DNA of 32,000 nt from an uncultured Actinomycetes bacterium (GCA_963843975.1 CAWJMG010000003.1:2490001-2522000); one strand, 5' to 3'; positions 2,353 to 24,275 are shown, numbered from the stretch's first letter. The notes: generated by a model from the sequence alone, not told the origin. Made by a program: numbers and translations.

Positions 2353-3877
2353 GTGAAGACCACCAAGACCTTGACGATCGTCGGCGTCAGCGCCGCGCTC
2401 GTCGCGCTCGGCGCTCCGCTGGCCAACGCGTCGCACGACGCCGAGGCGGGCGGCACCACGAGCTCGCAGTCGCCGTACATCGTGCCCGTCGCCGATGGCG
2501 TCACCACGCGCGCGATCCTGACCGCTGGCGACTCCGTCGGCGGCTACCGGTTCGCCGGCATCCCGGACGGCCTTGCGGCGTTCGAGAACGACGACGAGGA
2601 CGGCTACGGCGACGACACCTTCACGGTGCTCGTCAACCACGAGATCGGCACCGACCGCGTCACCGGCGCGCCGCTCGGCGTCGTGCGCGCCCATGGGGCC
2701 GCGGGCGCGTCCGTCACCAAGCTCACGATCTACGAGGAGACCCTCAAGGTCGTCAAGGCCGAGGACCTCATCCAGCGCGTGTACGACTGGAAGGACGGCG
2801 CGTGGGCGCCGACGGCGACGGCGTTCAACCGCTTCTGCTCGGGCGACCTCGCGCCCGTCTCTGCCTTCTACGACAAGGCGACCCGCACCGGCACCAAGGA
2901 GCGGATCTACCTGAACGGCGAGGAGAGCGGCAACGAGGGTCGTGCCGTCGCGCACGTCGCCACCGGCAAGGACGCGGGCTCGAGCTACATCCTCCCGTGG
3001 CTCGGCAAGTTCAGCTGGGAGAACGCCGTCGCCAAGCCCGGCTACGGCACGAAGACGGTCGTGGTCGGCACCGACGACACCACGCCGGGCCAGATCTACG
3101 TGTACGTCGGCACGAAGCAGAAGACCGGCAACGCGGTCGAGCGCGCGGGTCTCACCAACGGCACCGTCTACGGCATCAAGGTCGAGGGCGTAGGCAACGG
3201 CTCTGCCAGCGAGATCAGCACCGCCGTCCTGCCCGTGAACGGTGCAACCTCGCCCTTCACGCTCGTCCCGCTCGGCGACGTCTCGGCCCTGACCGGTGCG
3301 CAGCTCCAGACGGCCAGCAACAGCGCCGGCGTGACCGAGTTCGCCCGCCCCGAGGACTCCAGCTGGGACCCGAGCAACGCGAAGAACCTGTACGCCGCCA
3401 TGACGAACGCGTTCAACCGTCAGACGCGGCTGTGGAAGTTCACCTTCACCGACGCGGGCAACGTGCTCGCCGGTGGCACCGCGACGATCGCCCTGCAGGG
3501 CCCGGCGTTCGACCCGGCGAAGTCCAACGCGGACCAGGCCGGCCCGCGCATGCTCGACAACCTCACGGTCAACGCCAACGGCGAGGTCCTGGCGCAGGAG
3601 GACGTCGGCGGCAACGACTACCTCGGCGGCATCTACCGGATCAACCCGGCGACCGGCACCTCGACCCTCATCGCCCAGCACGACCCGGCGCGGTTCGTCA
3701 CCGGTGCTCCCGGCTTCCTGACGACCGACGAGGAGAAGCTCGGGCATCATCCCCGTGCCGTTCCTCGGCAGGGGTGCCTACCTGATCGACAGCCAGGCCC
3801 ACTACGCCACCGACGCCGAGACCGTCGAGGGCGGACAGCTCCTCCTGCTGCGCATCAAGGACCCGAAGCGCAGCTAG
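2353..3877 (+). pseudogene. Secreted DUF839/PhoX-like beta-propeller protein, interrupted by a +1 frameshift at about 3736 (true pseudogene or consensus error)
   Basis: RBS GGAGA then GTG at 2353. Sec signal VKTTKTLTIVGVSAALVALGAPLANA. Body contains ...TVLVNHEIG...FNRFCSGD...YLNGEESGNEGR...EFARPEDSSWDP... Frame 1 ends sensibly at ...FLTTDEE. Frame 2 continues SSGIIPVPFLGRGAYLIDSQAHYATDAETVEGGQLLLLRIKDPKRS* to the stop at 3875-3877. The family assignment is from memory. Confidence 0.55.
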
Positions 3878-4046
3878 CACCCCCGAACGGCTGCACGACC
3901 CACGTGCCCGGTCGCTCCCTCTGCGGAGCGGCCGGGCACGCGTGCGTCGGCGTACGCGCTCACACGGACCTCACGAACCGAAACGCGCAGGCAACAGATG
4001 CCTGCCACGCTGGGTGCACCGAACGCCGATCCCGGGAGTCCCAGCA

Positions 4047-5903
4047 GTGAGCGATGCCGGTGCCGAGGCCGTGACGAGCCGACCCCGTGGGCCGATCGAG
4101 GGCCTGCTCGACGAGGTCTGGCGCGAGGTCGCCGTCCTCGACGACGGCGACATCGCGACGTACATCCCCGAGCTCGCCAAGGCCGACCCGTCCACCTGCG
4201 GCATCAGCCTCGCGACCCTCGACGGGCAGGTGTACGACGCCGGCGCGCTCGTGCCGTTCACCATCCAGTCGGTGTCCAAGCCGTACGTCTACGCGCTCGC
4301 CCTGGCCGACCGGGGCTCGGAGGCGGTGCTCGCGAAGGTCGGGGTCGAGCCGACCGGCGACCCGTTCAACAGCATCAGCCTCGACGACCGTTCGAGCCGC
4401 GCGTTCAACCCGATGGTGAACGCCGGTGCGATCGTCACCTCGAGCCTCGTGCACGGGCAGACGCGCGCCGAGCAGTTCGAGCGCATCCACAGCGGCCTCT
4501 CGGCGTTCGCGGGGCGCGAGCTGGCGATCGACGAGGACGTGTTCCACAGCGAGCGCGCGACGGGCGACCGCAACCGCGCCATCGCCTACCTCATGCGCTC
4601 GGCGGGCCTCCTCGACGAGGATGTCGATGCTCAGGTGGAGTGCTACTTCCGCCAGTGCGCAGTCCTCGTCACCGCACACGACCTCGCGGTGATGGCGGCG
4701 ACGCTCGCCAACAGCGGGGTGAACCCGGTGACCGGCGAGCAGGTCGTCCCCCGCGACGTGGTCGCGTCGGTGCTCACGGTCATGGCGACCTGCGGCATGT
4801 ACGACTACGCGGGCGAGTGGCTCTACCGCGTCGGGCTGCCCGCCAAGAGCGGTGTCAGCGGCGGCGTCTCGGCCGCGCTGCCCGGCCAGCTCGGCCTCGG
4901 CCTGCACAGCCCTCTGCTCGACGCCAACGGCAACAGCGTGCGCGGGGTCGCCGCCGCAGAGCTGCTCTCCAAGCGCCTCGGCATGCACCTGCTGCTGCCG
5001 TCCGAGCGCACCCGCAGCGGCCTGCGCCGCACCTACCGGGCCGACGCGATCCGGTCCCGCCGCGGCCGCCCGCGCGCGCACCGGGCCGTGCTCGACGCCG
5101 AGGCCTGGGCGATCGTCGTCCACGAGCTGGTGGGCGACGAGGGCTTCGCGAGCACCGAGCTGCTCATCCGCGCCGTCCTCGACGACCCGCGCCCGGCCCG
5201 CTGGCGGGTGCTCGACCTGCGTCGGGTCACCCGCATCGACACCGCGGCGAGCGCGCTGCTGCAGTCGCTCGTCGAGCAGCTCACCGAGGCGGGCGCCGTC
5301 GTCTGCATCGTGGAGCCGCGCACGATGCAGCCCCGCACCACCCTGCGGGTGCTCCCCGACTCCGTGCACCGGTTCGCCGACGCCGACGCAGCCCTCGAGT
5401 GGTGCGAGACCGAGCTGCTCAAGGAGCACGGGCTCACCGACGACCTCCTCGACGGGCTCGTGCCGCTCGCGGCCCAGGAGCTCCTCGAGGGGCTGCCCGA
5501 GTTCGCCGTCCAGGCGCTCGAGGAGCGCTGCACGACGCGGGTCATCACGGCCGGGGCCGTGGTCTTCGACGAGGGCGACCCGGCCGACGGCCTCTACTTC
5601 GTCGGGGCCGGTCAGGTGGCGGCCGACGTCCGCATCCGGAACCAGTCCGGGCGCCGCAGGCTGAGCACGATCTCGGCCGGCTCCTCCTTCGGCGAGCTGG
5701 CACTGGTCGACGGCAGCACCCGGTCGACCCGGATCGTCGCGCTCGAGCCGACCATCTGCCACGTGCTGTCGCCCGACGCGTTCGCCGAGCTGAGGCGCCG
5801 CGACCCGGCGTCGGCCTCCGAGCTCGTGCTCGCGATCTCGCGCAGCCTGTCGGCCAGGCTGCGCTCCTCCACGGCAGACGTCGCGGCCTTCGAGGACGCC
5901 TGA
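4047..5903 (+). CDS. glsA: Glutaminase A fused to a STAS domain and a cyclic-nucleotide-binding (cNMP) domain
   Basis: The N-terminal roughly 310 aa are classic glutaminase (YIPELAKADP...FTIQSVSKPYVYALAL...EPTGDPFNSI...NPMVNAGAI...GDRNRAIAYLM...MATCGMYDYAGEW..LPAKSGVSGG). A STAS-like block follows (RVLDLRRVTRIDTAASALLQSLVEQL). Then a cNMP block (GDPADGLYFVGAGQV...FGELALVDGSTRSTRIVA). The GTG start at 4047 follows GGGAG; an upstream in-frame start at 3942 is possible. Confidence 0.85.
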   Translation: MSDAGAEAVTSRPRGPIEGLLDEVWREVAVLDDGDIATYIPELAKADPSTCGISLATLDGQVYDAGALVPFTIQSVSKPYVYALALADRGSEAVLAKVGVEPTGDPFNSISLDDRSSRAFNPMVNAGAIVTSSLVHGQTRAEQFERIHSGLSAFAGRELAIDEDVFHSERATGDRNRAIAYLMRSAGLLDEDVDAQVECYFRQCAVLVTAHDLAVMAATLANSGVNPVTGEQVVPRDVVASVLTVMATCGMYDYAGEWLYRVGLPAKSGVSGGVSAALPGQLGLGLHSPLLDANGNSVRGVAAAELLSKRLGMHLLLPSERTRSGLRRTYRADAIRSRRGRPRAHRAVLDAEAWAIVVHELVGDEGFASTELLIRAVLDDPRPARWRVLDLRRVTRIDTAASALLQSLVEQLTEAGAVVCIVEPRTMQPRTTLRVLPDSVHRFADADAALEWCETELLKEHGLTDDLLDGLVPLAAQELLEGLPEFAVQALEERCTTRVITAGAVVFDEGDPADGLYFVGAGQVAADVRIRNQSGRRRLSTISAGSSFGELALVDGSTRSTRIVALEPTICHVLSPDAFAELRRRDPASASELVLAISRSLSARLRSSTADVAAFEDA

Positions 5904-6079
5904 CGCGGCGACCCGGGAGCGGACGCCCCCTGGGCGCCACGGTCACCCGTTCGGAGCAACGAGGCTCAGGGCGTCCGCAGTCTGGGACGTTTCTTGGACG
6001 TCCCGGGGGTGATCCCCGCAGGGGAAATGCCGATGATCGGGGGGTCAGAGAACCGCACGTCCTCGTTGGGGGAGCACGC

Positions 6080-6547
6080 ATGAAGATCCGGGTCGCCGTA
6101 CCGATCGCCGTCGCAGCCCTGTTCATGGGCTCGACCGCCGCGTTCGCGTCCAGCCACATCGCCGTACCCGCCTCCGCGCCCTCCGCCGACACGGTGAAGA
6201 CGGCCGTGCCCGAGCCCACCGAGACCGAGTCGGACGAGCCCGAGGCCACCGAGACCCCCTCGGTCGAGCCGACCGAGAGCGAGAGCCCCGAGGTCGAGGC
6301 CACCGAGTCCGAGACGCCGAAGGCGGCCGAGACCGAGTCTGAGTCCGCCGAGCCGCGGGCGACCCGCAGCCACGACGACTCCGACGACGACAGCGACGAG
6401 GCCGAGGACGGCGACCACCACGGCAGCGCGACGGCCGGATCCGGCGACGACGTCGAGGACCACGGTGACGACGAGGCCGACGACCACGGCGGCGACAGCG
6501 GCAGCGGCCACGGCGGCGACGACTCCTCGGAGCCGGACGACGACTGA
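6080..6547 (+). CDS. Small secreted, extremely acidic low-complexity protein (E/T/S/P-rich, then D/H/G-rich)
   Basis: RBS GGGGGAG then ATG at 6080. Signal peptide MKIRVAVPIAVAALFMGSTAAFASS. Then PEPTETESDEPEATETPSVEPTESESPEVEATESETP... and ...HDDSDDDSDEAEDGDHHGS..DDVEDHGDDEADDHGGDSGSGHGGDDSSEPDDD*. A hairpin follows the gene. Confidence 0.6.
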   Translation: MKIRVAVPIAVAALFMGSTAAFASSHIAVPASAPSADTVKTAVPEPTETESDEPEATETPSVEPTESESPEVEATESETPKAAETESESAEPRATRSHDDSDDDSDEAEDGDHHGSATAGSGDDVEDHGDDEADDHGGDSGSGHGGDDSSEPDDD

Positions 6548-6567
6548 GCGTCAGCGAGAGAACCCGC

Positions 6568-6602
6568 GAAAGGCCCGTTCCCCTCGGGGGAGCGGGCCTT
6601 TC
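6568..6602 (+). terminator. Stem-loop terminator downstream of the acidic secreted protein gene
   Basis: GAAAGGCCCGTTCCCC-TCGG-GGGAGCGGGCCTTTC: about a 15-bp GC-rich stem with one bulge, 20 nt after the stop. Confidence 0.55.
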
Positions 6603-6711
6603 GGCATCCCGGATCACACGATCGGGCCGCAGATGCGCCGAACAGGTGACGTGCGCCCGGTTCTGTGGCACAACTGTCCGGTGGGAAGGTAGGCGGTCCG
6701 GGGAGGGGCGC

Positions 6712-7767
6712 GTGAAGTTCGGCAAGAAGCGCTCGGCTCCCGAGCCTGAGCCCATCGACATCACCGAGCGGCTGTCGATCCTCGATCTGCGCGATTCCGC
6801 GCGCCCGGGGGCCGCGCCCGGGTCGGCAGCGCCCCCCGCCGCGGGAGCTCCCGCGGCGTCCGAGAGCGACGCCCTGCCCGGTCGTGTGGTCTGGAAGCCG
6901 ACCATCTACCAGCCCCCCGCGCCCGGCACCGCGGCGCCCGCCGACGTGGTCGCGGAGGCCGTGACCGCCCCGCAGCCCGTCGTGGCCGCCGCCCCGCCGG
7001 TCGCGGCGCCGACGCCGGTCCCCGCGGAGACGCCCGCCTACGCTCCCCCGCCCGCTCTGGCGAACCACCACGCCGACGCGGCGCGGTACGAGGCCGAGGC
7101 GTTCGAGCTGCCCAGCTTCGTCCCGCCGCCGGTGGAGCCCGAGGCGCCGGCGGCACCCGTCGCACCGGACGTGTGGGACCAGCACGAGCCGACCGTCGCG
7201 ACCATGGCCGAGCCGCCGGTGGCTTACGACGCCCCCATGACCCCCGAGGCCACCACGTCAGCGCCGCCCCCTGTCGACCCCGGGGCCGGGGCCGGCGAGC
7301 CCGCCCACGAGCCGTGGACGCATCACGAGCCCACGCCGCTGGAGCCCGCGGCGCCGGCGTACGACGTCCCGATCGCGCACGGGATCACCACCGCCGAGCT
7401 GCCGCCGTTCGAGCCGCAGTCCGGCGCCGGGGAGCCCGCCCACGCGCCGTGGACGGAGCACGCACCGACACGCCTCGAGCCGGCCTACCCGCAGCACGAG
7501 GAGCCGACGCCCCTCGAGCCCACGGCGCACACGTCGACGTACGCCGAGCGCGAGGCGCAGGTGCCCGACGCCCGCGCGGAGGACGAGTCGCGCGAACCCG
7601 TCGAGGCGGCTTCGGCGCCGGACCTCACCGAGCCCGTCCCGACCGTCCCCGAGCAGGTCGTCGACCTCACCGAGGCGCCGGAGCCCGTGCACGCGGCGGT
7701 CGTCGAGGCGCTGGCGGCCAACAACCGGCGGAGCGACGACGACGGCGTCATCCGCTGGACCTGGTAG
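6712..7767 (+). CDS. Pro/Ala/Glu-rich hypothetical protein with internal repeats
   Basis: RBS GGGGAGGGG then GTG at 6712 (VKFGKKRSAPEPEPIDITERLSILDLRD...). Repeated blocks GAGEPAHEPWTHHEPTPLEPAAPAY and GAGEPAHAPWTEHAPTRLEPAYP, plus a third partial EEPTPLEPTAH. High GC3. No family recognised. Confidence 0.5.
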   Translation: MKFGKKRSAPEPEPIDITERLSILDLRDSARPGAAPGSAAPPAAGAPAASESDALPGRVVWKPTIYQPPAPGTAAPADVVAEAVTAPQPVVAAAPPVAAPTPVPAETPAYAPPPALANHHADAARYEAEAFELPSFVPPPVEPEAPAAPVAPDVWDQHEPTVATMAEPPVAYDAPMTPEATTSAPPPVDPGAGAGEPAHEPWTHHEPTPLEPAAPAYDVPIAHGITTAELPPFEPQSGAGEPAHAPWTEHAPTRLEPAYPQHEEPTPLEPTAHTSTYAEREAQVPDARAEDESREPVEAASAPDLTEPVPTVPEQVVDLTEAPEPVHAAVVEALAANNRRSDDDGVIRWTW

Positions 7768-7872
7768 TCCCAGGGTCTGAAGCGCAGGGCTCTGACGCGC
7801 CAGCAGTTGCTGCGCCAGGGCAGCACGACGGCGAGGCGGCCCTGTGCGGCGACCCTCCGGGACGTGGCCGGC

Positions 7873-9051
7873 CTAGGCGGCCGGGCCGTGCCCCTCGAGG
7901 TGCGGCGTGAGCGTGAGGGGCTGGTCGAGCTCCTCCTCGGACGGGATCTCGGCCTCGACGTCCTCGGCCGTGATGGTGTTGGCCATCGCGTAGCCGATGA
8001 GGCCGGCGGCGATCAGCACCAGGAGCCCGGTCACGATCCAGGCGAAGGCGCCGGGCAGCTGCGTCGCCTTGAAGGCGAGGAACCCGACGACGATCGTCGA
8101 GGGCAGCGTGACGACCCACGCCATCACCATCTGCCCGATGACGCGCAGGTTGATGCCGACGCCCGAGGCGACACCCGCACCGGCGACCGATGACGCGGCG
8201 GCGTGCGTGGTCGAGATCGGCACGCCGAGGCCGGTGGCACCGAAGATCGCCGTGACGGCACCAGCGTTGGCCGCGACGCCCGAGGACGCATGCAGGGTCG
8301 TGATCTTGAGGCCCATCGTCTCGATGATCTTCCAGCCGCCCCAGATCGTGCCGAGGGCGATGGCGCCGTACGCCGCGAACTCCACCCAGGTCGGCACGGC
8401 GATGTTGCCGTCGGCACCCGCCGTGAGGTGACCGGTGCCGACGAGCAGGGCGGCGATGACACCCATGGTCTTCTGCGCGTCGTTGGCGCCGTGGCCGAAG
8501 GACACTGCCGCGGCGGACACGAGCTGCAGCCACTTGAAGGGCTTGGCGTTCTCGTGCGCGCCGGTGGCCTTGCGGATCGCGGCGATCAGGTACATCGCCA
8601 GGAACGCGATGAAGAAGGCGACGAGCGGGCTGACGACGATCGCGATCGCGGTCTTCTGCACGCTCGACCAGCTGATCGCGTCCGTGCCGCCGGCGGCGAG
8701 GCCCGCACCCACGAGACCGCCGATCAGGGCGTGGCTCGAGGATGACGGCATGCCGATCCACCACGTCGCGTAGTTCCAGGCGATGGCCGCGAACAGGGCG
8801 CCGAACACGACGGCGATGCCGGTGAAGTCGGGCTTCACCGTCTTGGCGACCGTGTTCGCGACGGCGGTGCCCACGATGAAGACCGCGGCGAAGTTGAAGA
8901 AGGCGGAGAACCAGACGGCCCACTTGGCCGGCAGCGCCCGCGTGGCGACGACCGTCGACACGGAGTTCGCGGCGTCGTGGAAGCCGTTGGTGAAGTCGAA
9001 CAGCAGCGCCAGGGCCACGACCGCGATGAGGGCGATCAGCGTGAGGTCCAC
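7873..9051 (-). CDS. pit: Inorganic phosphate transporter, PiT (PHO4) family
   Basis: ...LLFDFTNGFHDAANSVSTVVATRAL... and a second ...FGHGANDAQKTMGVI... signature, with about 10 TM segments. Start chosen at GTG 9051 (VDLTLIALIAVV) after GGTGGAG; the longer ORF to 9189 has a non-coding-looking N-terminus. Confidence 0.9.
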   Translation of the reverse strand: MDLTLIALIAVVALALLFDFTNGFHDAANSVSTVVATRALPAKWAVWFSAFFNFAAVFIVGTAVANTVAKTVKPDFTGIAVVFGALFAAIAWNYATWWIGMPSSSSHALIGGLVGAGLAAGGTDAISWSSVQKTAIAIVVSPLVAFFIAFLAMYLIAAIRKATGAHENAKPFKWLQLVSAAAVSFGHGANDAQKTMGVIAALLVGTGHLTAGADGNIAVPTWVEFAAYGAIALGTIWGGWKIIETMGLKITTLHASSGVAANAGAVTAIFGATGLGVPISTTHAAASSVAGAGVASGVGINLRVIGQMVMAWVVTLPSTIVVGFLAFKATQLPGAFAWIVTGLLVLIAAGLIGYAMANTITAEDVEAEIPSEEELDQPLTLTPHLEGHGPAA

Positions 9052-9135
9052 AGGATCTCCACCGTGCGAGGGCCCGCCCCCCTGGGCAGCCCGGACGGGC
9101 CCAATGTGGGGGCTCCCGGGCCGTGTGTCCACGGG

Positions 9136-9168
9136 GTGGAGTGAACAAACCACGAACGGGTGGTGAAC
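9136..9168 (-). promoter_or_regulatory. Three tandem 11-nt direct repeats resembling PhoP PHO boxes upstream of pit
   Basis: The minus strand reads GTTCACCACCC GTTCGTGGTTT GTTCACTCCAC, 85-117 nt upstream of the pit GTG. The 11-nt periodicity and GTTCA core match Streptomyces-type PHO boxes. Confidence 0.5.
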
Positions 9169-9287
9169 GGGGCCCGGGTGGGGCGACACGCCCGAGGAGC
9201 ACGCAGATAGGCGGTAAGGCCTGCCTCAGTCACGAACTGTTCTTCCGGCGTTCATCTGAGCACGTGAGGGCGGGCCGCCGAGACAGC

Positions 9288-9321
9288 GGTGGGGGCGGCC
9301 CCGGTCGGGACCGCCCCCACC
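9288..9321 (-). terminator. Stem-loop terminator after the NCS2 permease gene
   Basis: GGTGGGGGCGG-N12-CCGCCCCCACC: an 11-bp perfect GC stem, 24 nt beyond the stop at 9345. Confidence 0.55.
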
Positions 9322-9344
9322 GGGACGTGCGGCGCGGAGCCGGG

Positions 9345-10814
9345 TCAGGAGACGCCGAGCACCGTGCTGATCGGGTCGTAGGCGAAGTAGATGACGAACG
9401 CGGCCGTGACGACCCACATGAGCGGCTTGACCTCGCGGGCCTTGCCCGTGAAGACCTGGATGAGGGTCCACGAGACGAAGCCGGCGCCGATGCCGTTCGT
9501 GATCGAGTACGTGAACGGCATGATCGTGAGCGTCAGGAACGCCGGGATGCCGATCGAGTAGTCGGTGAAGTCGATGTGGCGGATCTGCGTCATCATCAGG
9601 AACCCGACGATCACGAGCGCGGGCGTGGCCGCCTCGTGCGGGATCACCGTGACGAGCGGCGAGAAGAACATCGCGATCAGGAACAGCACACCGGTGACGA
9701 GGGACGCGATACCCGTGCGGGCACCCTCACCGACTCCGGACGCCGACTCGATGTAGCTCGTGTTGCTCGAGACGCTCGCGGCGCCACCGGCGGCCGCGGC
9801 GATCGAGTCGACGAGCAGGATCGACTCCAGGTGCGGCACGTCGCCGTTCTCGTCGAGGATCTCGCCCTCGTTGGCGATGCCGAAGACCGTTCCCATGGTG
9901 TCGAAGAAGTCGCTCAGCATGAGGGAGAAGATCGCGAGGATCGCCGCGATCAGGCCGATCGCCTTGAAGCCGCCGAGCAGGTTGAACTGGCCGAGCAGGC
10001 CGAGGTCCGGCGTCGAGACGAGGGTGTCCGGCAGCTTCGGGACGTTGAGGCTCCAGCCGAGCTGGTTCGCGATCTTCCCGTCGGCGCCGACGCGCGGGCC
10101 GACGTGAGCGATGGCCTCGATGACGATCGCGAGGATCGTGGTCGCGACGATGCCGATGAGGATCGCGCCCTTGACCTTCTTGGCCACGAGCACCGCGAGC
10201 AGCAGCAGGCCGAAGACGAAGGTGAACGTCGGCCAGCCGCGCAGCGCGCCGTTGGTGCCGAAGGAGATGAGCGGCGTGCCCTGGCGGGTGATACCGGCGT
10301 CGACGAAGCCGATGATCGTGATGAACAGGCCGATGCCGACGCCGATGGCGTACTTCAGCTGCTCGGGCACGGCGTGGAAGACCGCGGTGCGGAAGCCCGT
10401 GAGCACCAGCAGCGCGATGATGATGCCCTCGATGACCACGAGACCCATCGCGTCGGCCCAGGTCATCTGCGGTGCGAGGGTGAACGCCACGAAGCCGTTG
10501 AGCCCGAGGCCCGCGGCGAGCGCGACCGGGAAGCGGCCGATGGCACCCATCGCGATGGTGAGCAGGCCGGCCATGAGCGCCGTCGCCGCCGTGACCATCG
10601 TGATGGCCTGGACGACGCTGCCGCCGCCGAGGAAGTTGTCGGTGCTGTCCTTCGCGGTGCCGATGATGAGCGGGTTCAGCACGACGATGTACGCCATCGT
10701 GAAGAACGTGACGAGACCACCGCGCACCTCGCGCGAGACGGTCGAGCCGCGCTCGGTCAGGTGGAACCAGCGGTCCCAGCCCGTCGTTGCGCGGTCAGGG
10801 GCTTCCACAGCCAT
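9345..10814 (-). CDS. NCS2-family nucleobase:cation symporter (adenine/guanine/hypoxanthine permease, AzgA/PbuG-like)
   Basis: 489 aa: MAVEAPDRATTGWDRWFHLTERGSTVSREVRGGLVTFFTMAYIVVLNPLIIG...SNTSYIESASGVGEGARTG... This is the typical AzgA-like N-terminus and signature, with about 13 TM segments. Confidence 0.9.
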   Translation of the reverse strand: MAVEAPDRATTGWDRWFHLTERGSTVSREVRGGLVTFFTMAYIVVLNPLIIGTAKDSTDNFLGGGSVVQAITMVTAATALMAGLLTIAMGAIGRFPVALAAGLGLNGFVAFTLAPQMTWADAMGLVVIEGIIIALLVLTGFRTAVFHAVPEQLKYAIGVGIGLFITIIGFVDAGITRQGTPLISFGTNGALRGWPTFTFVFGLLLLAVLVAKKVKGAILIGIVATTILAIVIEAIAHVGPRVGADGKIANQLGWSLNVPKLPDTLVSTPDLGLLGQFNLLGGFKAIGLIAAILAIFSLMLSDFFDTMGTVFGIANEGEILDENGDVPHLESILLVDSIAAAAGGAASVSSNTSYIESASGVGEGARTGIASLVTGVLFLIAMFFSPLVTVIPHEAATPALVIVGFLMMTQIRHIDFTDYSIGIPAFLTLTIMPFTYSITNGIGAGFVSWTLIQVFTGKAREVKPLMWVVTAAFVIYFAYDPISTVLGVS

Positions 10815-11001
10815 GGTGTGCCTTCCGGGAGGAATATGCCGCCGAGGGGTGGAGGGAAGTCGGCGACCAGCGGCTGAGGTTAACGGTCAGCGAACGGCCC
10901 GTCACGCTACTGGCGGGTTTTCCTCGGACGATCGCGAGAACCGCGAAACACGGTGGAAACAGAGTGGTTTCGGCTGGCGGTGGAAGTGCCCTGACATGCG
11001 A

Positions 11002-11036
11002 CGAGGCCCCTCGAAGTATGAGTTCGAGGGGCCTCG
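11002..11036. terminator. Strong orphan hairpin (14-bp perfect stem) with no adjacent CDS end
   Basis: CGAGGCCCCTCGAA-GTATGAG-TTCGAGGGGCCTCG. It lies about 190 nt upstream of the permease start (minus sense) and about 490 nt downstream of the hydrolase stop. Confidence 0.45.
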
Positions 11037-11453
11037 CACGCGGCCGCCGGCCGCTCCCGGGAGACCCGGTCACGAGCACGGCCTGCGGGTGCCGCCGCAG
11101 CCGCTGATCCCTGCCCGGGAGACCCGGGCGCTTCACGAGCGGATGGCCCGCCCGGCCGGTCCCGCTGGTCCGCTGCGGTGGCACCCGCAGCCAGGAGGGT
11201 TGCCCCTCCCGGATGGACCGACGTTCTCCGTCCGAGCCGCCCTTGCCGCCGGCGCCTGCTCCGGGTTGCCCCGGTGCCTGCCCCGTCCGCGAGGACGTGA
11301 GGAGATTGATACGCGCCCTGCGCCAACGGGCACAAGGGCTTTCGGCGACGAATCTTTGTGCACAGCTCCGCGCACAGGACCGTCCACAACCGCCCGTGCT
11401 CAGCCCCGAGGTTGTCCCCACCCCTGTGCACAAAACTCGTGGACAACCCCACG

Positions 11454-11516
11454 CGCTCGCACTGATCAATCCGTCGCTTCCCGACTCGGGAAACGACGGA
11501 TTGACCAGTGCGAGCG
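11454..11516. repeat. Long palindromic hairpin element, copy 1 (core ACTGATCAATCCGTCGCT...AGCGACGGATTGATCAGT family)
   Basis: CGCTCGCACTGATCAATCCGTCG-CTTCCCGACTCGGGAAA-CGACGGATTGACCAGTGCGAGCG: 23-nt arms with 1 mismatch, and the loop itself pairs (TTCCCG/CGGGAA). It sits 9 nt 3' of the hydrolase stop. A near-identical core recurs at 24276-24324. Confidence 0.8.
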
Positions 11517-11524
11517 AGGGGGTG

Positions 11525-12346
11525 CTAGGCCGTGAGGGCGCGGGGCTCGATGGGGGCGAGGAGGTCGGCGACGAGGTCGATCACCTCGGGGTCGGCGCCC
11601 ATGCTCATGTGGGTGGCCTGCACCTCGAGGTGCTGCGCCGACGGGTCGAGGCAGGCGCGCCAGTCGATGACGCCGTCGTTCATCGAGAACACCGACGTGT
11701 AGGCGACGTCGTCGGGGAAGTCGCCGTCGAGGACCGCCTTCACCTCGTGGGCGCACTCGCCGGTGAGGCAGTCCTCCGACAGCAGCCCGGGCACGCCGAT
11801 CGCGCGCAGCCGCGCGAGCAGTCCGATCTGCGCGGCCAGGGTCTCGCTCACGGCCAGCGGGTGCGTGTTCGGCGTACCGAGGGTCACGAGGGTCTCGACG
11901 AGGTCGGGCCGGCGTACGGCGACGAGCTTGCCGAGGGTGCCGCCACGGCTCCAGCCGACGATCGCGACGCGCTGCCCCGTGCGCTCGGCGACCGCCTCGA
12001 GCCTGCGCTCGAGGGCGTCGGCCATCTCGCGCGTGCAGCCGACGTTCGGGCCGATGCCGCTCTTGGACGTCCAGTGCCCGCGCAGTCGCAGCGCATCGGC
12101 CATGGGCGCGAGCGCGATGTCGGTGGCGGCGAACCCGGGCACGAGCAGGACGGGGACGCGGTCGGTGTCGACCTCGGTCTCGACCGGCTTGTGCTGCAGG
12201 ATCCGGCCGGCCACCGTGAAGACGGACAGGTTCTCGCGCACAGCGGTGAGCACCGGCGGCCGGAAGGTCGTCGGGTGCTTGATCAGGTCGCCGATCTCCT
12301 CGAGCGACCGCACCACCGGGTTGGACACGTTCTCAGTGTGCGACAC
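11525..12346 (-). CDS. Alpha/beta-fold hydrolase (lipase/esterase-like)
   Basis: ...VPVLLVPGFAATD...QRVAIVGWSRGGTLGKLVA (GxSxG-type nucleophile elbow GWSRG)...TLGTP... The ORF extends to 12877, but only the C-terminal roughly 270 aa look coding. The start is ambiguous: GTG at 12346 or 12328. Confidence 0.7.
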   Translation of the reverse strand: MSHTENVSNPVVRSLEEIGDLIKHPTTFRPPVLTAVRENLSVFTVAGRILQHKPVETEVDTDRVPVLLVPGFAATDIALAPMADALRLRGHWTSKSGIGPNVGCTREMADALERRLEAVAERTGQRVAIVGWSRGGTLGKLVAVRRPDLVETLVTLGTPNTHPLAVSETLAAQIGLLARLRAIGVPGLLSEDCLTGECAHEVKAVLDGDFPDDVAYTSVFSMNDGVIDWRACLDPSAQHLEVQATHMSMGADPEVIDLVADLLAPIEPRALTA

Positions 12347-12538
12347 GACGTCCCCGAGCGGAACGCCATTCCGCCGCCAACGGCCTCCGACGCTGCGGTG
12401 AAAGCCGCGTTTGTTGCGCTCTGAGCAACGAAGGCCCCCTTCATCGCAGCAGAGGAGGGTCAACGGGCGGCACAATCGCGCACGGGCAGCACAGAGCGCT
12501 ATCAGGCGGGTCACAGGTTGGGCCGCCACGGTCCTCCC

Positions 12539-13925
12539 ATGGCCGCACCCGCTGACCCCCGAGAGCACGGTTCCCCCGACCGTGCGTGGTCCGACGCCTC
12601 TCCCGGCGCTGATGCGGCCACGCTGGTCGCCCTCGCCCCCGACCCGACTCCCTCGCGGGACGGGGCGACGGCGACCACCGATCCCGGCCCGGCGCCGACC
12701 TCGGTCGGCGCCGGTACCGGAGACCGGCCCCACGTCGTCGTGGACGTCGTCGTCCCGGTGTACAACGAGGAGGCCGACCTCGGGCCGAGCGTGCGCCGCC
12801 TGCACGCCTACCTCGAGCCTCCACCTGCCTGTGACGTTCCGGATCACGATCGCCGACAACGCGAGCACGGACCGCACCTGGGAGATCGCCCAGGACCTCG
12901 CCTCGACGCTGCCGCACGTGGGCGCCGTCCGGCTCGAGGAGAAGGGCCGCGGCCGGGCCCTGCAGCAGGTGTGGTCGGCCAGCGACGCCGACGTCCTCGC
13001 CTACATGGACGTCGACCTCTCCACCGACCTGGCCGCGGTGCTCCCTCTCGTGGCGCCTCTGCTGTCGGGCCACAGCGACCTCGCGATCGGCACGCGTCTC
13101 GCCCGCGGCTCCCGGGTCGTCCGCGGCACCAAGCGCGAGGTGATCTCCCGCTGCTACAACCTGCTGCTGCGGCTCTCCCTCGCCACCCGCTTCTCGGACG
13201 CGCAGTGCGGCTTCAAGGCGATCCGCGCCGACCGGGCGAAGGAGCTGCTGCCGCTCGTCGAGGACACCGGCTGGTTCTTCGACACCGAGCTCCTCGTCCT
13301 CGCCGAGCGCTCCGGCCTGCGCATCCACGAGGTGCCCGTCGACTGGGTCGACGACCCGGACTCGCGCGTCGACATCGTCTCCACCGCCACGGCCGACATC
13401 CGCGGCATCGTCCGGCTCGCGCGCGGCATGGCGTCGGGCTCGATCCCGATCACGTCGCTGCCGTCGTACCAGGGCGCCGACGTGCCGCCGCGGCTCGGCC
13501 GCCAGCTCGTGCGCTTCGCCGCAGTCGGCGTCCTCTCGACGCTCGCCTACCTGCTGCTCTACCTCCTGCTGCGCGCCGGCCTCGGCGCCCAGTGGGCGAA
13601 CGCGACGGCCCTGCTGCTCACCGCGGTCGGCAACACCGCGCTCAACCGCCGCCTCACGTTCGGCGTCCGGGGTGCGACCGACCGGTTCCGCCACCAGCTC
13701 CAGGGCCTCGTCGTCTTCGCGATCGGCCTCGCCCTCACCTCGACGTCCCTGTGGGGGCTGCACACCGCCGCACCCGCGGCACCGCGCTGGCTCGAGGTCG
13801 GAGTGCTCGTGTCCGCCAACGTCGGCGCCACCCTCGTCCGCTTCCTGCTGTTCCGCTCGTGGGTCTTCCCGCGCCGCGAGACCCCTGCCCTGCCCGCACA
13901 GCCCGACCGGAGGACCACCTCATGA
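12539..13925 (+). pseudogene. GT2 glycosyltransferase (polyprenol-phosphate mannose/glucose synthase-like) with a C-terminal GtrA-like TM domain, interrupted by a +1 frameshift at about 12818
   Basis: Frame 2 reads ...VVDVVVPVYNEEADLGPSVRRLHAYLE. Frame 0 continues LHLPVTFRITIADNASTDRTWEIA...YMDVDLSTD...FSDAQCGFKA...WFFDTELL..., then a GtrA-like tail (LVRFAAVGVLSTLAYLLLY...NVGATLVRFLLFRSWVF). The N-terminal start is uncertain: ATG at 12539 or TTG at 12518. Confidence 0.75.
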
Positions 13926-16139
13926 GCACCGTCGACGACCCCACCTTCGTGCCGCCCCTGGACACGATCGACGAGATCGGCGAGGTCGACCCGGCCGGCA
14001 CCGAGCAGTCGACGGTCATGGACAGCGCCGCCGCGGCAGCGGCTGTGCCGCCGGCGATCGAGACCGGCCGCCTCGCCCGCCTCTGGCGCGGCAACGCGGA
14101 CGACCCGCGCTGGGTCCGCCCGGCTCTGCTCGCCTTGCTCGCGGGCACCGCACTGCTCTACCTGTGGGACCTCGGGTCCTCGGGCTGGGCCAACGCGTTC
14201 TACTCCGCCGCGGCCCAGGCCGGCAGCGAGAGCTGGAAGGCGTTCCTGTTCGGATCGTCGGACGCCGCCAACCTCATCACCGTCGACAAGCCGCCGGCCG
14301 CGCTCTGGCCGATGGCGATCTCGGTGAAGATCTTCGGCCTCAGCAGCTGGAGCCTGCTCGTGCCGCAGGCGCTCATGGGCGTCGCGAGCGTCGGCGTGCT
14401 CTACCTCGCCGTACGCCGGGTCGCCGGCGCGGCCGCCGGCCTGATCGCGGGCGCCGTGCTCGCGCTCACGCCCGTCGCCGTCCTCATGTTCCGCTTCAAC
14501 AACCCCGACGCGCTGCTCGTGCTGCTGCTCGTCGGCGCGGCGTACACCACCGTCCGCGCCACCGAGAAGGCCTCGATGACGTGGCTCGTGTGGACCGGCG
14601 TGCTCGTCGGCTTCGCGTTCCTCACCAAGAGCCTGCAGGCGTTCCTGCCCCTGCCCGCCTTCGCGCTCGTCTACCTGTACGCCGCCCCGACGACGCTCGG
14701 CCGCCGCATCCGCGACCTGCTCGTCGCCGGCGCCGCGATGATCGCGGCCGGCGGATGGTGGGTGGCGCTCGTCGAGCTCTGGCCCGCTGACAGCCGGCCC
14801 TACATCGGCGGCTCGCAGACCAACTCGGCCTGGGAGCTGATCATGGGCTACAACGGCCTGGGCCGGATCACCGGCGACGAGGTCGGCAGCGTCACCGGCG
14901 GCGGTGCCGCGATCGGCGCCAACGCCGGCGGCATGTGGGGCGAGACCGGCATCGGCCGCCTCTTCTCCAGCTCGTACGGCGGCCAGATCGCGTGGCTCAT
15001 CCCCGCGGCGATCGTGCTGGCCGCAGCTGTCCTGGTGCTCCGCGGCCGCGCTCCGCGCACCGACATGAAGCGCGCCTCGGTGATCCTCTGGACCGGCTGG
15101 CTGGCCATCACCGGCGCCGTCATCTCGTTCGCGGCCGGCATCATCCACGAGTACTACACGGTGGCCCTCGCACCGGCCATCGGCGCACTCGTGGGCATCG
15201 GCGTCGTCGAGCTCTGGAGGCACCGCGAGCATCTCGCGGCCCGCGCCACCCTCGCGGTGACGGTCACCGGCTCCGCCGTGTGGGCGAGCGTGCTGCTCGG
15301 CCGCTCGGCCGACTGGTACCCCGCGCTGCGCTGGATCGTGCTCGTCGCCGGCACCGTCGCCGGCCTCGCGATCCTGCTCGCCGACCGCATGAGCCGTCGC
15401 CTCGCCCTCGGCGCCGTGGGCGCCGGCCTCGCCGTGGCCCTGCTCGCGCCGACGGCGTACTCGCTGCAGACGGCGGCGCAGCCGCACACCGGCTCGCTGC
15501 CGACCGCCGGCCCGACCGTGTCCGGCGGCCGCGGCTTCGGCCCGGGCGGGCAGGGCGGTCCCGGCGGCCAGGGAGGTCCTGGCGGCCAGGGCTTCCCCGG
15601 CGGCCAGCTGCCGGGTGGCGGCCAGGGCTTCCCCGGCGGCGGGACGCTCCCGGGCGGCGGCACCCTCCCCGGCGGCGGCACGCTCCCGGGTGGCGGCACC
15701 TTCCCGGGTGGCGGCACGACGGGCGCGATGCCCGGCGGAGGGATGGGCGGCCTGCTCGACGCGGCCACGCCGAGCGCGGAGCCTCCAGGCCCTGCTCACC
15801 CAGGACGCCGACAGCTACACCTGGGTCGCCGCGGCGGTCGGCGCGCAGACCGCGGCCGGCTACCAGCTCGCCACCGGCTACCCGGTGATGTCCCTCGGCG
15901 GCTTCAACGGCAGCGACCCGTGGCCGACCCTCGAGGTCTTCCAGCAGTACGTCGCCTCCGGCCAGGTGCACTGGTTCATCGGCGGCGGGGGCGGCTTCGG
16001 CGGCCAGAACGGCGGAGCGTCCACCACCAGCGAGATCTCATCCTGGGTGGAGGAGAACTTCACCGCCCAGACCGTCGGCGGCGTGACGGTGTACGACCTG
16101 ACCGCCCCGGCGTCGGGAGCCACCAGCACCACCGCATGA
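13922..16139 (+). pseudogene. GT39/ArnT-like (PMT-family) integral-membrane glycosyltransferase, interrupted by a +1 frameshift at about 15782
   Basis: ATG at 13922 overlaps the GT2 stop (ATGA). ...WANAFYSAAAQAGSESWKAFLFGSSDAANLITVDKPPAALW..., with many TM segments. Frame 2 ends ...LLDAATPSAE. Frame 0 continues LQALLTQDADSYTWVAAAVGAQTAAGYQLATGYPVMSLGGFNGSDPWPTLEVFQQYVASGQVHWFI...WVEENFTAQTVGGVTVYDLT..*. Confidence 0.75.
15520..15760 (+). repeat. In-frame Gly/Pro-rich tandem repeat tract inside the GT39 gene
   Basis: Encodes GGRGFGPGGQGGPGGQGGPGGQGFPGGQLPGGGQGFPGGGTLPGGGTLPGGGTLPGGGTFPGGGTTGAMPGGGMGG. This includes four consecutive 18-bp units (GGC GGC ACS CTC CCS GGY). Confidence 0.8.
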
Positions 16140-16351
16140 CCGCGCGCTGAGCCCGCGCTTCGAGGGATCCGCGGGGCACGGGAGCGGGTGCTGTGCGACC
16201 ACGTCGCACCGCCCCGGGACCCCCGCGGCCCGCGGATCCTCGTCGTACGGCGCTCCGTTGCTCACTCCGGGTGACACCCGACTCACCCGGACGGCGCATT
16301 CATCGCGGAGCGGGCTGCTCCGATGCGTGACATGCGGGCATCATCGAACCC

Positions 16352-19300
16352 ATGCCTGACCGCCTCCCCCCGTGGTTGGCCGCTGCCGACCCGGCCGTGG
16401 CCGGTCTCGGCGACGTCGACCTCGTGGCCGCGGCGACCGCCGACGCCACAGGTCTGGTGCAGGTCGACGAGGACGGCTCGGTCCGCTGGACCGACGAGGC
16501 CTACCGGCTGCACGGCCGGCCCCGGTGGCGCCGGGTGCGCACGATCGACGACGTCGCCCACGGCCTCTCGGCCGCCGACGCCGGCCGCGTGACCGCGGCG
16601 TACCTGAACCTCGTGGGCAGCGGCGACGTCGAGCTGCTCTACACCGTGACCGGCGAGACGGGTCAGCCGCTCGACGTGCTGCTCAGCGGAGCGTGGCCGG
16701 GCTTCGCCATGGTCCAGCGGGCGGCGTACCAGCCGCCGAGGGCCGCGCCCGCGACGCCCGCGGCGCAGCCGGCCGCGACCGAGACCGTCGAGGACGAGGT
16801 CGTCGAGCCCGACGTCGCCGAGCCCGAGCTTCGAGGTCGTCGAGGACGAGGCGCCGGTCGTGGCGCACGTCCCCGCACCCACCGATGCCGCCGTGCCCGA
16901 CCCCGACATCGACCAGGCCTTCCGCGCGCTGTTCGACGCGAGCCCGAGCGGCCTCGCCGAGCTGCGCGGCGACGGCACCTTCGTGCGCGTCAACGAGGCG
17001 TTCTCCCGGCTCGTGGGTCGCACCTGGGACTCGCTCCGCGACACCGTCTTCGAGGCGCTCGTCCACCACGAGGACCGCGCGTCGGCGTTCGTCGCACGCA
17101 ACCGTCGCGAGGACGAGGGCGACCCCGTCGCGCCGTCGGAGTACCGCCTGCTGCACTCGGACGGCTCGGTCGTTTGGGTGCGCGCGCGCACCTCGCCGAT
17201 CGAGGCCGAGGCCGAGGACCGCCTGCTCGTCTCGCTCGAGAACGTCACCGCGTCGCGCGCCCGCGAGGAGCAGCTGCGCCACGACGCCCTGCACGACGCA
17301 CTGACCGGCCTCCCCAACCGCCGCCTCGTGCTCGACCGCCTCGACCGTGCGGTGTCGCGCGCCCGGCGCGGCGGCCAGCGGCTCGCGATCTTCTTCGTCG
17401 ACGTCGACGACCTCAAGCACGTGAACGACACGCACCCGTGGCAGCACAGAGCAGGCGACGTGCTGCTCACCAGCATCGCCGGCGCCATGCGCAACGCGCT
17501 CCGCGAGACCGACACGCTGGGCCGTCTCGCGGGCGACGAGTTCCTCGTGATCTGCGAGGAGGTCGGCGACGACGTCGCGGTCAACGAGGCTCTCCGAGCG
17601 CCTGGTCGAGGCCGCGCGCCAGCCGGTGCCGCTCGGTCCGCAGACGATCACTCCGTCGGTGAGCATCGGCCTCGCCCTCACGGGCGACGACGACGAGACC
17701 GCCGAGGAGCTGCTCGCCCGCGCAGACGCGGCGATGTACGTCGCCAAGAGCCACGGCGGCGGGCGCGTCGAGCGCGCCGAGAGCATCGCCGCCTCCTCGA
17801 CGCCCGACCTCGTCGGCGCACTGATGCGCGGCGAGCTGCGCATGCACTACCAGCCGGTCGTGTCGCTCGCGACGGGCGCGGTGCTCGGCGTCAGCGCCGT
17901 CCTGCGCTGGGTGCACCCGTCCCTCGGGATGCTGCCCGCGCACCAGGTGCGCACCGCGCTCGACTCGGCCTCCGTCCTCCCCGTCGTCGACTGGTGCATC
18001 GACCGCGCGATCAACGACGTCCGCACGGTGGCTCCGAGCCGCGTCGACCACGTGTCGGTGTGGCTGCCGGTGCCAGGCCGTGCGCTGCAGGCGACGTCCA
18101 CCCGCGACGCCCTGCGCGCCGCGCTCGCCGGCGCCGACGGCTCGCAGAACGCCGACACCTCGCCGTCGCTCGTGCTCGACGTGCACGAGTCCGACCTCGG
18201 CGTGCTCGCCCGGCGTCCCGCCCTGCGGCGCCAGCTCGCGGCACTCACCGAGTCCGGCCCCGTCGCCCTCGGCATCGAGCACCTGTCGGCCGACGTCCTC
18301 CCGCTCGGCTCCCTTCAGCTGCTGGGATCCGCGTCCGCGTCCATCGACCCCGAGCTCATCCTCGCGGCGTCGGAGAACGAGCCCAGCGAGGCGCTCGTCC
18401 GTTCGCTCGTCACCGGCGCCACGGCGCTCGGCGTCGTCACGGTGGCCACCGGGATCTCGACCCCCGAGCTGCTCGCCGAGGCGCGACGCCTCGGCGTGCA
18501 CGCGGTCTGCGGCGACCTCATCGGCCCGGCCGCCTCGCTCGAGATCTACTCCGACCTGCTGCACGGCGAGCGGATCACGCTGCCCGACATGCCCGAGGTC
18601 GCGGTCGTCGTGCCGCACGACGACGAGCTCTACAGCCCCGCCGCCCGCCCCGTGCTCGCCGCGATCCGCGCCCTCGAGGAGGACGACGACGAGGCCGACC
18701 TCGACGTCGCGGCCGATCTCGACGACGACGTGCTCGCAGACGACGAGGACGCCCCGGTGCCCGTCTCCGACGAGCACTCCGAGGACGCGGTCGCCGAGAC
18801 CGTCGACCTCACCGACGAGGTGCCCGCGGCCGAGCCGGACGAGACCGCACAGGTCGCGGCCCAGATGTCGGGCCGGCTGCTCCTCGGCGACGTCGTCGAC
18901 CTCGCCGAGCAGGTGGCCCGCGAGCTCGGCGTCGCCCTGCCGCCGCCGGACCTCGAGCGCGAGGGCGTGCCCTCGTCCGAGACCCCCGACCTCGTCGACG
19001 ACGGACCGATGCCCGACCGCGCGCCGTCACGGCTGCCCGGTCTTGCCGACCTGCATGCCGCCCTCGGGTCGCCCGAGGTCAGCCGTGCGCTCGACGACCG
19101 CACCGACCCCTCGCGCGGGGACGGCCCGCCGCCCGCAGCACCCACCGCGCTCAGGGCCGCAGACCCGGCGCCAGCGTCGGGCCCGACGCTGATCTCCGGG
19201 CCGGAGCCCGCGGGCACCCTCGAGGTGGGCGGCTCAGCCCTCCCCCTGTCGCTGGCCCCGGGACTCGCGGCCGAGCCGATGCCGTTCGTCCGCCCGACCA

Positions 19301-19539
19301 CCCCTGCCCCGGGCGAGGTGGACGGCCAAGCCGGTGATGGAGTGAGCGCGGCCGCCTCCGACGACGTCGACCTCACCGACGCGACGCGGGCGCCGGACGT
19401 CGACCTGCGCACCCGCGGCGGCGATGCCCCGCGCATCGTGGTGCGTGCCGGCAGCGACGACCCTCTGGCCACCGGCCGGCCCGTGCCCATGCTGCGGCTG
19501 CACGGCCGTGGCGGCAGCGACGGCGGCTCGATTCTCTAG
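16352..19539 (+). pseudogene. PAS-PAS-GGDEF-EAL c-di-GMP signalling protein with a long acidic/Pro-rich tail, interrupted by two +1 frameshifts (about 16830 and about 17589)
   Basis: Read across three frames. Frame 2: MPDRLPPW...VDEDGSVRWTDEAYRLHG... Frame 0: ...FRALFDASPSGLAELRGDGTFVRVNEAFSRLVG...HDALTGLPNRR...FFVDVDDLKHVNDTH...LGRLAGDEFLVICEE. Frame 1: LSERLVEAARQPV...SIGLALT...ADAAMYVAKSHGGG...ELRMHYQPVVSL...VLRWVHP... The GGDEF motif reads AGDEF, and the EAL motif position reads SAV. Confidence 0.75.
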
Positions 19540-19563
19540 CTGCTGCGCAGCACGTCGTACGCC

Positions 19564-19899
19564 TCAGTCGTAGCCGAGGTCGTGCAGGCGGTCGTCGTCG
19601 ATCCCGAAGTGGTGCGCGATCTCGTGCACGACGGTGATGTGCACCTCGTCGATGACCTCGTCGAACGTCGAGCAGATCCGCAGGATCGGGACGCGGTAGA
19701 TCGTGATCCGGTCGGGCATCGCACCGGCGTAGTAGTGGCCGCGCTCGGTCAGCGGCACGCCCTGGTAGAGCCCGAGGAGCGAGGGCTCGCCGGGCTCCAC
19801 GTCGTCCTCCACCACGAACACGACGTTGTCGACCAGGCGCGCGAGCTCGTCCGGGATCTCGTCGAGGGCCTCGGCCACGAGGTCCTCGAACTCCTCCAT
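19564..19899 (-). CDS. Small zinc metallopeptidase-family protein (zincin-like, DUF1025-type)
   Basis: MEEFEDLVAEALDEIPDELARLVDNVVFVVEDD...ITVVHEIAHHFGIDDDRLHDLGYD*, with an HExxH motif. Alternative GTG starts lie at 19905 and 19914. Confidence 0.7.
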   Translation of the reverse strand: MEEFEDLVAEALDEIPDELARLVDNVVFVVEDDVEPGEPSLLGLYQGVPLTERGHYYAGAMPDRITIYRVPILRICSTFDEVIDEVHITVVHEIAHHFGIDDDRLHDLGYD

Positions 19900-20065
19900 C
19901 GGCACCTGCAGCACGACCCGATCCTCCCCCACCGCGCGCCGGTCCGCCCCCGCGTTCGCTGCGGGGTGAGGGGGTGTGGGACCGTCGGGTGAAGCCGGTT
20001 TTGGATCGTCGTCCGGAGTCCCGTATGCTTCCGTGGTCCCCGACGGGTGACGTCGGAGGCCTCCG

Positions 20066-20138
20066 GCCCCCATCGTCTAGTGGCCCAGGACACCGCCCTT
20101 TCACGGCGGCAGCACGGGTTCGAATCCCGTTGGGGGTA
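20066..20138 (+). tRNA. tRNA-Glu (anticodon TTC)
   Basis: GCCCCCATCGTCTAGTGGCCCAGGACACCGCCCTTTCACGGCGGCAGCACGGGTTCGAATCCCGTTGGGGGTA. Cloverleaf arms pair, the anticodon loop is CTTTCAC, and no CCA is encoded. Confidence 0.9.
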
Positions 20139-20175
20139 CGCACCACAGCACGGCAGTTCGACAGCAGCACAGCAA

Positions 20176-20252
20176 GGCCCCGTAGCGCAGTTGGTTAGCG
20201 CGCCGCCCTGTCACGGCGGAGGTCGCCGGTTCGAGCCCGGTCGGGGTCGCCA
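20176..20252 (+). tRNA. tRNA-Asp (anticodon GTC), CCA encoded
   Basis: GGCCCCGTAGCGCAGTTGGTTAGCGCGCCGCCCTGTCACGGCGGAGGTCGCCGGTTCGAGCCCGGTCGGGGTCGCCA. The anticodon loop is CTGTCAC. Confidence 0.9.
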
Positions 20253-20254
20253 GC

Positions 20255-20290
20255 ACGAAGGGCGCCACTCTCACGAGTGGCGCCCTTCGT
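20255..20290 (+). terminator. Strong hairpin terminator after the tRNA-Glu/Asp pair
   Basis: ACGAAGGGCGCCACTC-TCAC-GAGTGGCGCCCTTCGT: a 16-bp perfect stem starting 3 nt after the tRNA-Asp CCA. Confidence 0.7.
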
Positions 20291-20337
20291 CGTTCCCCGG
20301 CCCGCCGCGCCCGTGGCAGCGACGAGCAGGTCGTACG

Positions 20338-20372
20338 TTCCAGGCCCGGCGAGGGAGTGCCCGGGCCTGGAA
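20338..20372 (-). terminator. Hairpin terminator downstream of xylB
   Basis: TTCCAGGCCCGG-N11-CCGGGCCTGGAA: a 12-bp perfect stem, 16 nt beyond the xylB stop. Confidence 0.6.
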
Positions 20373-20387
20373 GTCAGGGGCGCCCGG

Positions 20388-21782: not shown

Positions 21783-21787
21783 CGCGA

Positions 21788-22954: not shown

Positions 22955-22977
22955 GGTTGCCTCCGTCGGGCATCTGG

Positions 22978-23010: not shown

Positions 23011-23021
23011 GAGGAGGCGTC

Positions 23022-24260: not shown

Positions 24261-24275
24261 CCCCTCCTTGATCCC

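Follow-up and report, generated by a model that had tools for sequence, protein, structure and literature searches.

Five frameshifts in a 32-kb actinobacterial sequence fall within GAGCTC and probably reflect consensus errors at a modified motif

The stretch analyzed here, referred to below as the window, is 32 kb of actinobacterial DNA with a G+C content of 72%, assigned to an uncultured Actinomycetes bacterium (GCA_963843975.1, CAWJMG010000003.1:2490001-2522000). It contains exactly five frameshifts, all of them +1, and these break four genes. In each case a single base that is not part of a repeat is duplicated, which converts the palindrome GAGCTC into a 7-mer. We regard the five insertions as systematic consensus errors, arising from long-read sequencing of native DNA at a motif that is modified on both strands, and not as real mutations; we put the probability of this reading at about 0.8. 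The original prediction, made from the sequence itself, had described the five 7-mers and had offered three explanations without preferring any of them: a systematic error at a modified GAGCTC, scars of restriction cuts sealed by end joining, and slippage specific to the motif. The first is favored in our analysis by the motif specificity, the intact genes of relatives, the constraint on the broken genes and the error spectrum. The second is disfavored and the third is unsupported.

Frame switches were located with a plot of third-codon-position G+C (GC3) by frame, and then with a seven-state Viterbi model of codon-position composition. Over the whole window, the model found same-strand frame switches without a nearby stop codon at 3746, 12817, 15781, 16830 and 17588 only. 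The proteins of relatives, aligned to the window by tblastn, changed frame only in the genes for GT2-GtrA (at 12816/12817), PMT/YkcB (by 15780) and PAS-GGDEF-EAL (at 16729-16860 and at 17588/17590). By the same alignment, all seven syntenic neighbor genes, encoding a glutaminase, PHO4, a xanthine/uracil permease, a hydrolase, a zincin, an FGGY kinase and a protein with the AP-endonuclease fold, are read in a single frame. The frame plot, the model and tblastn are three independent checks, and they agree that five is the full count. The claim that every frameshift of the window sits in a 7-mer derived from GAGCTC therefore stands, and all five 7-mers are present exactly as first described. The remaining nine copies of these 7-mers in the window are in frame, within intact genes. 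A GAGGCTC at 5961 is not a sixth event, being intergenic and showing no gap in the alignment with the syntenic locus L081; another, at 2306, lies upstream of the start of the PhoX-like gene and has no relative for comparison.

By motif position, the duplicated bases are A2, G3, C4, C4 and T5, which reproduces the two strand-symmetric classes noted earlier (A2/T5 and G3/C4). The events include no deletions and no nonsense changes. None of the five sites lies in a homopolymer or repeat, and the genuine G/C runs of the window are intact. One-base insertions without deletions and outside homopolymers are an error signature. Five knock-outs of like kind within 14 kb, lacking both deletions and any case in a homopolymer, do not match the natural mutation spectrum. 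The codon phase varies among the sites, the one at 3735 being read xxG-AGC-TCx and the others GAG-CTC. A stop in the downstream frame at 3719 bounds the site at 3735 on its left, and the corresponding stop for the site at 17586 is at 17548. The region of the site at 16826 encodes a non-conserved acidic linker, and there the assignment of the extra base to CTTC (16829-16832) comes from codon usage and the composition model only. Deletion of one base was expected to restore both the reading frame and GAGCTC. It does so at all five sites, with the caveat that at 16826 three different single deletions restore the frame and just one of them gives GAGCTC.

The specificity for the hexamer is pronounced. 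The window holds 25 unaffected GAGCTC sites, all in coding sequence, in agreement with the earlier estimate by eye of roughly 25-30; after repair there are 30 in the approximately 32 kb. The probability that five of five random insertions would fall inside GAGCTC is ~2e-12, or ~1e-8 after multiplication by the 4096 possible hexamers, which bears out the view that the coincidence is very unlikely by chance. The insertions affect 5 of the 30 GAGCTC sites versus none of the 62 other GRGCYC sites (GAGCCC, GGGCTC and GGGCCC; Fisher p = 0.003), and the wider BanII-type motif GRGCYC is thereby ruled out as the target. The 75 other NAGCTN hexamers of the window are likewise unaffected. No pattern of flanking bases distinguishes affected from unaffected GAGCTC sites in the window.

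Ordinary spontaneous mutation by replication slippage, or programmed +1 ribosomal frameshifting, is extremely unlikely as the source of these events. Single-base duplication is a known class of spontaneous mutation, and a +1 ribosomal shift could in principle read through all four genes. Slippage, however, is at odds with sites that are neither runs nor repeats in a window whose real G/C runs are undamaged, and mutation would have to produce five independent events in one hexamer at the probability given above. For recoding, the position of the extra base in the motif and the codon phase differ among the sites, and so there is no common slippery codon. Both proposals also conflict with the orthologues, which are unshifted at these codons and use a single frame.

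Deletion of one base per motif gives open reading frames of 507, 461, 738 and 1061 amino acids (aa), with full Pfam matches across the junctions. The repaired junction at 3735 reads GAG GAG AGC TCG GGC (E E S S G) and matches a D-E-E-x-S-G motif that is invariant in the alignment of homologues, with the frame switch located between its residues. The PhoX-like protein has hundreds of homologues in a search of 1.8 billion representative proteins, and their alignments extend to residue ~500 of the 507 in the repaired protein. According to Pfam, the GT2 domain runs across the repaired junction at 12815, the YkcB_C domain starts at the junction at 15779, and the GGDEF domain (residues 312-469) runs across the repaired junction at 17586. 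In the organism itself, all four genes are almost certainly undamaged. As assembled, 4 of about 21 genes of the window are broken, at 5 frameshifts per 32 kb.

The closest public relatives are metagenome-assembled genomes (MAGs) labeled Candidatus Nanopelagicales, whose loci L081-L089 are syntenic with the window at ~85% DNA identity. The repaired GT2 protein reaches at best 87% identity in the protein search and 72% in a scan of genome contigs; exact look-ups of two intact proteins of the window had no match, and no sequence of the same species was found. These loci carry the GT2-GtrA, PMT and GGDEF-EAL genes intact, at 439-447, 706-709 and 1036-1263 aa, respectively; the PhoX-like gene is absent from them. 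A comparison with orthologues had been proposed together with the original prediction, and in it the relatives lack the extra base at 12815, 15779 and 17586, where the blastn alignments are interrupted by a single gap, which is 1 nt long and lies at the motif. The sequences there are GAG-CTG or GAT-CTG at 12815, GAGC-TG or GCTC-TG at 15779, and GA-GCTC or GA-CCTC at 17586. A further relative at ~80% identity, found in a pattern scan of metagenomes, reads GAGCTG at 12815. Downstream of the shifts, the ratio of nonsynonymous to synonymous substitution rates (dN/dS) relative to L081 is 0.08 for GT2, 0.21 for PMT and 0.25-0.48 for GGDEF-EAL, compared to 0.11-0.41 for intact neighbors. Because these values do not exceed those of the intact neighbors, the sequence comparison indicates no relaxed selection downstream of the shifts and no time spent as pseudogenes.

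The possibility that the insertions are scars was also weighed. In this scenario, GAGCTC sites in the DNA of the host were cleaved by its endonuclease of the SacI/Ecl136II type, for example when protection was transiently lost, and Ku/LigD resealed the breaks with one added nucleotide. GAGCTC is a known restriction site, which SacI cuts as GAGCT^C and Ecl136II as GAG^CTC. The polymerase of LigD is able to add non-templated nucleotides to ends (PMC8068969), and with each insertion in the window a site is lost. Blunt cleavage at GAG^CTC followed by the addition of one nucleotide would account for the three central events, GAG[C/G]CTC. For GA[A]GCTC and GAGCT[T]C a second cut geometry would be required, whereas a nuclease with a single geometry was to be expected. 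Judging from the cut positions, symmetric cuts in a 6-bp palindrome would leave overhangs of even length, whose fill-in cannot give +1. Moreover, all five added bases copy a neighbor, and the deletions and larger rearrangements that end joining also yields are missing. If 17% of the sites were hit, among perhaps thousands genome-wide, hundreds of breaks would have occurred and about a fifth of the genes would be inactivated, which is an implausible load. The broken genes show no relaxed constraint, and no gene for a nuclease, Ku or LigD lies within the window. The motif is also not depleted, its density being 0.94 per kb in the window versus 0.40 per kb over 1.66 Mb of related loci, although avoidance of the motif is not obligatory for a protected host. 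With cut geometry, mutational load and the lack of gene decay all against it, we judge this explanation very unlikely. It is hardly probable, in the same measure, that the extra bases are real and that the lineage outlived a burst of self-restriction, for example on gaining a nuclease like SacI/Ecl136II or losing a methylase. Were it true, the genome would carry hundreds of one-nucleotide end-joining scars, each destroying its site, and a sizeable share of its genes would have been knocked out very recently.

An artefact of sequence context, in which the chemistry, basecaller or polisher miscalls k-mers around GAGCTC regardless of methylation, shares the error signature of the events with the favored reading. 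It would also sit well with insertions not being the canonical error type induced by modification. The same frameshift scan was run on the 1.66 Mb of related loci and gave ~9 homology-confirmed frameshifts, versus 5 in this window of 32 kb. Four of these loci come from Microflora Danica MAGs, which are Nanopore-only and were assembled with Flye and one round of Medaka (PMC12313526). Three of the ~9 frameshifts fall in two of the four, L075 and L023. The one in L075 at ~11937, GCG[C]CTC in a PMT-type gene, has a C duplicated outside a homopolymer and is the only one resolved to a base; it is the same kind of event as the insertions of the window. The second in L075 (~3611) is ambiguous, GATC[C]AG or CTC[G]ATC, and the one in L023 (~8974) lies within a GCC-rich tandem repeat. 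None of the L075 and L023 frameshifts is linked to GAGCTC, and the four Nanopore-only loci together have 54 GAGCTC sites with no frameshift at any of them. GAGCTC is thus not error-prone in itself, which suggests a modification specific to the organism, on the assumption that the sequencing platform of the window was the same as theirs. The 62 related GRGCYC and 75 other NAGCTN sites of the window, all unaffected, also speak against a context artefact, and restriction to one exact 6-bp palindrome is the hallmark of a DNA-recognizing enzyme. We consider a modification-independent artefact unlikely.

Several frameshifts elsewhere in the comparison set are supported by homology. Actinokineospora pegani TRM 65233 has three of them inside 850 nt (L003, at 8313, 8995 and 9159), and single ones occur in a CCCC run of Streptomyces sp. 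RKAG290 (L074, at 11572) and in Amycolatopsis sp. cmx-4-68 (L042, at 20833). The locus L023 has just 2 GAGCTC sites in 21 kb. The three remaining Microflora Danica loci have 10-24, and the average over all loci is ~8 per 21 kb; the MAG to which L023 belongs may avoid the motif.

The mechanism that we propose for a modification-linked consensus error begins with native, unamplified DNA read on a single-molecule long-read platform, most likely Nanopore, followed by assembly and polishing that would have used no short reads. The organism would modify GAGCTC, most plausibly to GAG(m5C)TC (m5C, 5-methylcytosine), by a methyltransferase of the SacI/Sgr13350I type. As the motif is a palindrome, reads of both orientations would carry the modified base, and neither strand could outvote the other. 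At a fraction of the sites (5/30), the disturbed signal would be mis-segmented and one inner base (A2, G3, C4 or T5) called twice; the extra base would then outlast polishing and break the reading frame. Each of the five duplicated bases is at most two positions away from a cytosine presumed to be modified, be it on the same or on the opposite strand. Three elements of this scheme are inferred: the platform, the causal role of the modification and the methyltransferase itself. The error pattern alone indirectly suggests a GAGCTC methyltransferase in this organism. That a long-read assembly underlies the window is hinted at indirectly by the presence of an insertion sequence (IS) element and an island within one contiguous 32 kb, and by similarly frameshifted relatives being Nanopore-only.

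Published work gives this mechanism a background. Methyltransferases producing m5C in GAGCTC are known in Actinomycetota, namely M.Sgr13350I and that of a Patulibacter MAG (PMC11954522). In Propionibacterium strains with m5C in GRGCYC, a motif that includes GAGCTC, native R10.4.1 assemblies showed 114-126 differences, compared to 2 in a strain without GRGCYC methylation, and reads from polymerase chain reaction (PCR) products removed the differences (PMC11649196). Nanopore modification errors are strand-specific (PMC11610603), which makes a palindrome with methylation on both strands the kind of motif whose errors reach the consensus.

Some observations weigh against a modification-linked consensus error. 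The Nanopore modification errors reported so far are for the most part substitutions (C>T and G>A) and not insertions (PMC11610603, PMC10687267, PMC11170131), whereas here 5 of 5 events are single-base insertions and the typical C>T/G>A type does not occur among them. We found no literature report of insertions specifically at methylated GAGCTC. By Pfam, no methyltransferase or nuclease gene is present among the genes of the window, which covers 32 kb only. The affected sites are also mildly clustered, 5 among the first 14 sites versus none among the last 16 (hypergeometric p ~0.014, calculated by hand). Such clustering is unexpected if errors arise purely site by site; local coverage could produce it. 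The earlier proposal that the motif points to a GAGCTC-specific modification or restriction activity therefore survives in part, in that modification is a reasonable inference from the pattern, with neither kind of enzyme encoded in the window. The affected sites, the genes that they break and the intact motif copies are collected in Table 1.

Table 1. Frameshift sites, broken genes and intact GAGCTC sites in the window.
Feature	Position	Strand	Description
GAAGCTC	3735-3741	+	GAGCTC with extra A; +1 shift in PhoX-like gene
GAGCCTC	12815-12821	+	GAGCTC with extra C; +1 shift in GT2-GtrA glycosyltransferase gene
GAGCCTC	15779-15785	+	GAGCTC with extra C; +1 shift in PMT_2/YkcB-type glycosyltransferase gene
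GAGCTTC	16826-16832	+	GAGCTC with extra T; first +1 shift in PAS-GGDEF-EAL gene, acidic linker
GAGGCTC	17586-17592	+	GAGCTC with extra G; second +1 shift in PAS-GGDEF-EAL gene, inside GGDEF domain
PhoX-like secreted protein gene	2353..3877	+	507 aa repaired; one break
GT2 + GtrA bifunctional glycosyltransferase gene (Glycos_transf_2 + GtrA)	12539..13925	+	461 aa repaired; one break
PMT_2/YkcB_C membrane glycosyltransferase gene	13922..16139	+	738 aa repaired; one break
PAS-GGDEF-EAL signaling protein gene	16352..19539	+	1061 aa repaired; two breaks
Intact GAGCTC sites	2460..30009		Starts 2460, 4170, 5478, 5820, 6845, 7927, 13287, 14774, 15209, 18352, 18625, 18922, 19843, 21195, 21459, 22334, 22565, 22814, 23661, 23784, 25130, 26371, 26648, 28462, 30004

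The surroundings of the broken genes include two segments of probable mobile character. An IS481-family transposase gene (1062-2063, minus strand; rve/rve_3 and HTH domains) adjoins the PhoX-like gene. The IS481-PhoX block of ~3 kb (1062-3877) is missing from the syntenic L081, where an SfLAP-like gene directly adjoins the glutaminase gene, and the block is probably a lineage-specific insertion or acquisition. At the other end, tRNA-Phe (27807-27881) is followed directly by a tyrosine-integrase gene (27955-29526, minus strand) and by a stretch with a lower G+C content, 0.66-0.68 versus ~0.73. This stretch carries an ion-channel-like gene, a gene with a Hypoth_Ymh domain and a partial ABC ATPase gene. 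The region (27807-32000) resembles a genomic island inserted at tRNA-Phe; the portion of the island within the window contains no restriction-modification (R-M) gene. A search of the window with Rfam gave three tRNAs and nothing else. The intergenic stretch 5975-6075, upstream of a small gene (6080-6547), is strongly conserved with L081 (TCTGGGACGTTTCTTGGACGTCC...ATGCCGATGATCG), whereas the surrounding non-coding DNA is not; it has no Rfam match and may be a promoter, operator or leader. Between the xanthine/uracil permease and hydrolase genes, ~700 bp (10815-11524) lack a convincing open reading frame and an Rfam match, and relatives have a gap of similar size at that place (L081, 8257-9046).

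The biological weight of the finding is low, and its main value is as a quality-control flag on the assembly. At 4 of about 21 genes, a large share of the gene calls in this genome would be split or labeled as pseudogenes. Gene counts, pathway calls and statistics on pseudogenes would all be skewed as a result, in an actinobacterial lineage that is poorly sampled. The collapse of frameshifts onto one palindromic hexamer is a cheap diagnostic that needs no reads and reveals both the artefact and the likely methylation motif. If the platform is confirmed, one-base insertions would join the documented consensus errors linked to modification.

Three known systems invite comparison. Mutagenic non-homologous end joining by Ku/LigD in mycobacteria can likewise add single nucleotides at break junctions and would destroy a restriction site. 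It differs from the present case in that here 2 of the 5 insertion positions are off a single cut geometry, deletions and gene decay are absent, and the load would be implausible. The SacI-type R-M systems and orphan GAGCTC m5C methyltransferases (M.Sgr13350I of Streptomyces griseus and that of the Patulibacter MAG) share the recognition sequence, and the hosts of the latter are, like the present organism, high-GC Actinomycetota; both strands of the palindrome would be targets of such an enzyme. Here, the 32 kb hold no such gene, and the error pattern is what suggests one. The modification errors of Oxford Nanopore sequencing form a known class, described for Dcm and Dam motifs, for GCWGC and GCTGG in Listeria (PMC10687267), as strand-specific mismatches (PMC11610603), and for the Propionibacterium strains with m5C in GRGCYC (PMC11649196). 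As in that class, the events of the window concern one short motif of the kind that enzymes recognize, hit a fraction of its sites, are organism-specific, remain after polishing and reveal the methylation motif; unlike the published examples, which are dominated by substitutions, all five are one-base duplications that cause frameshifts.

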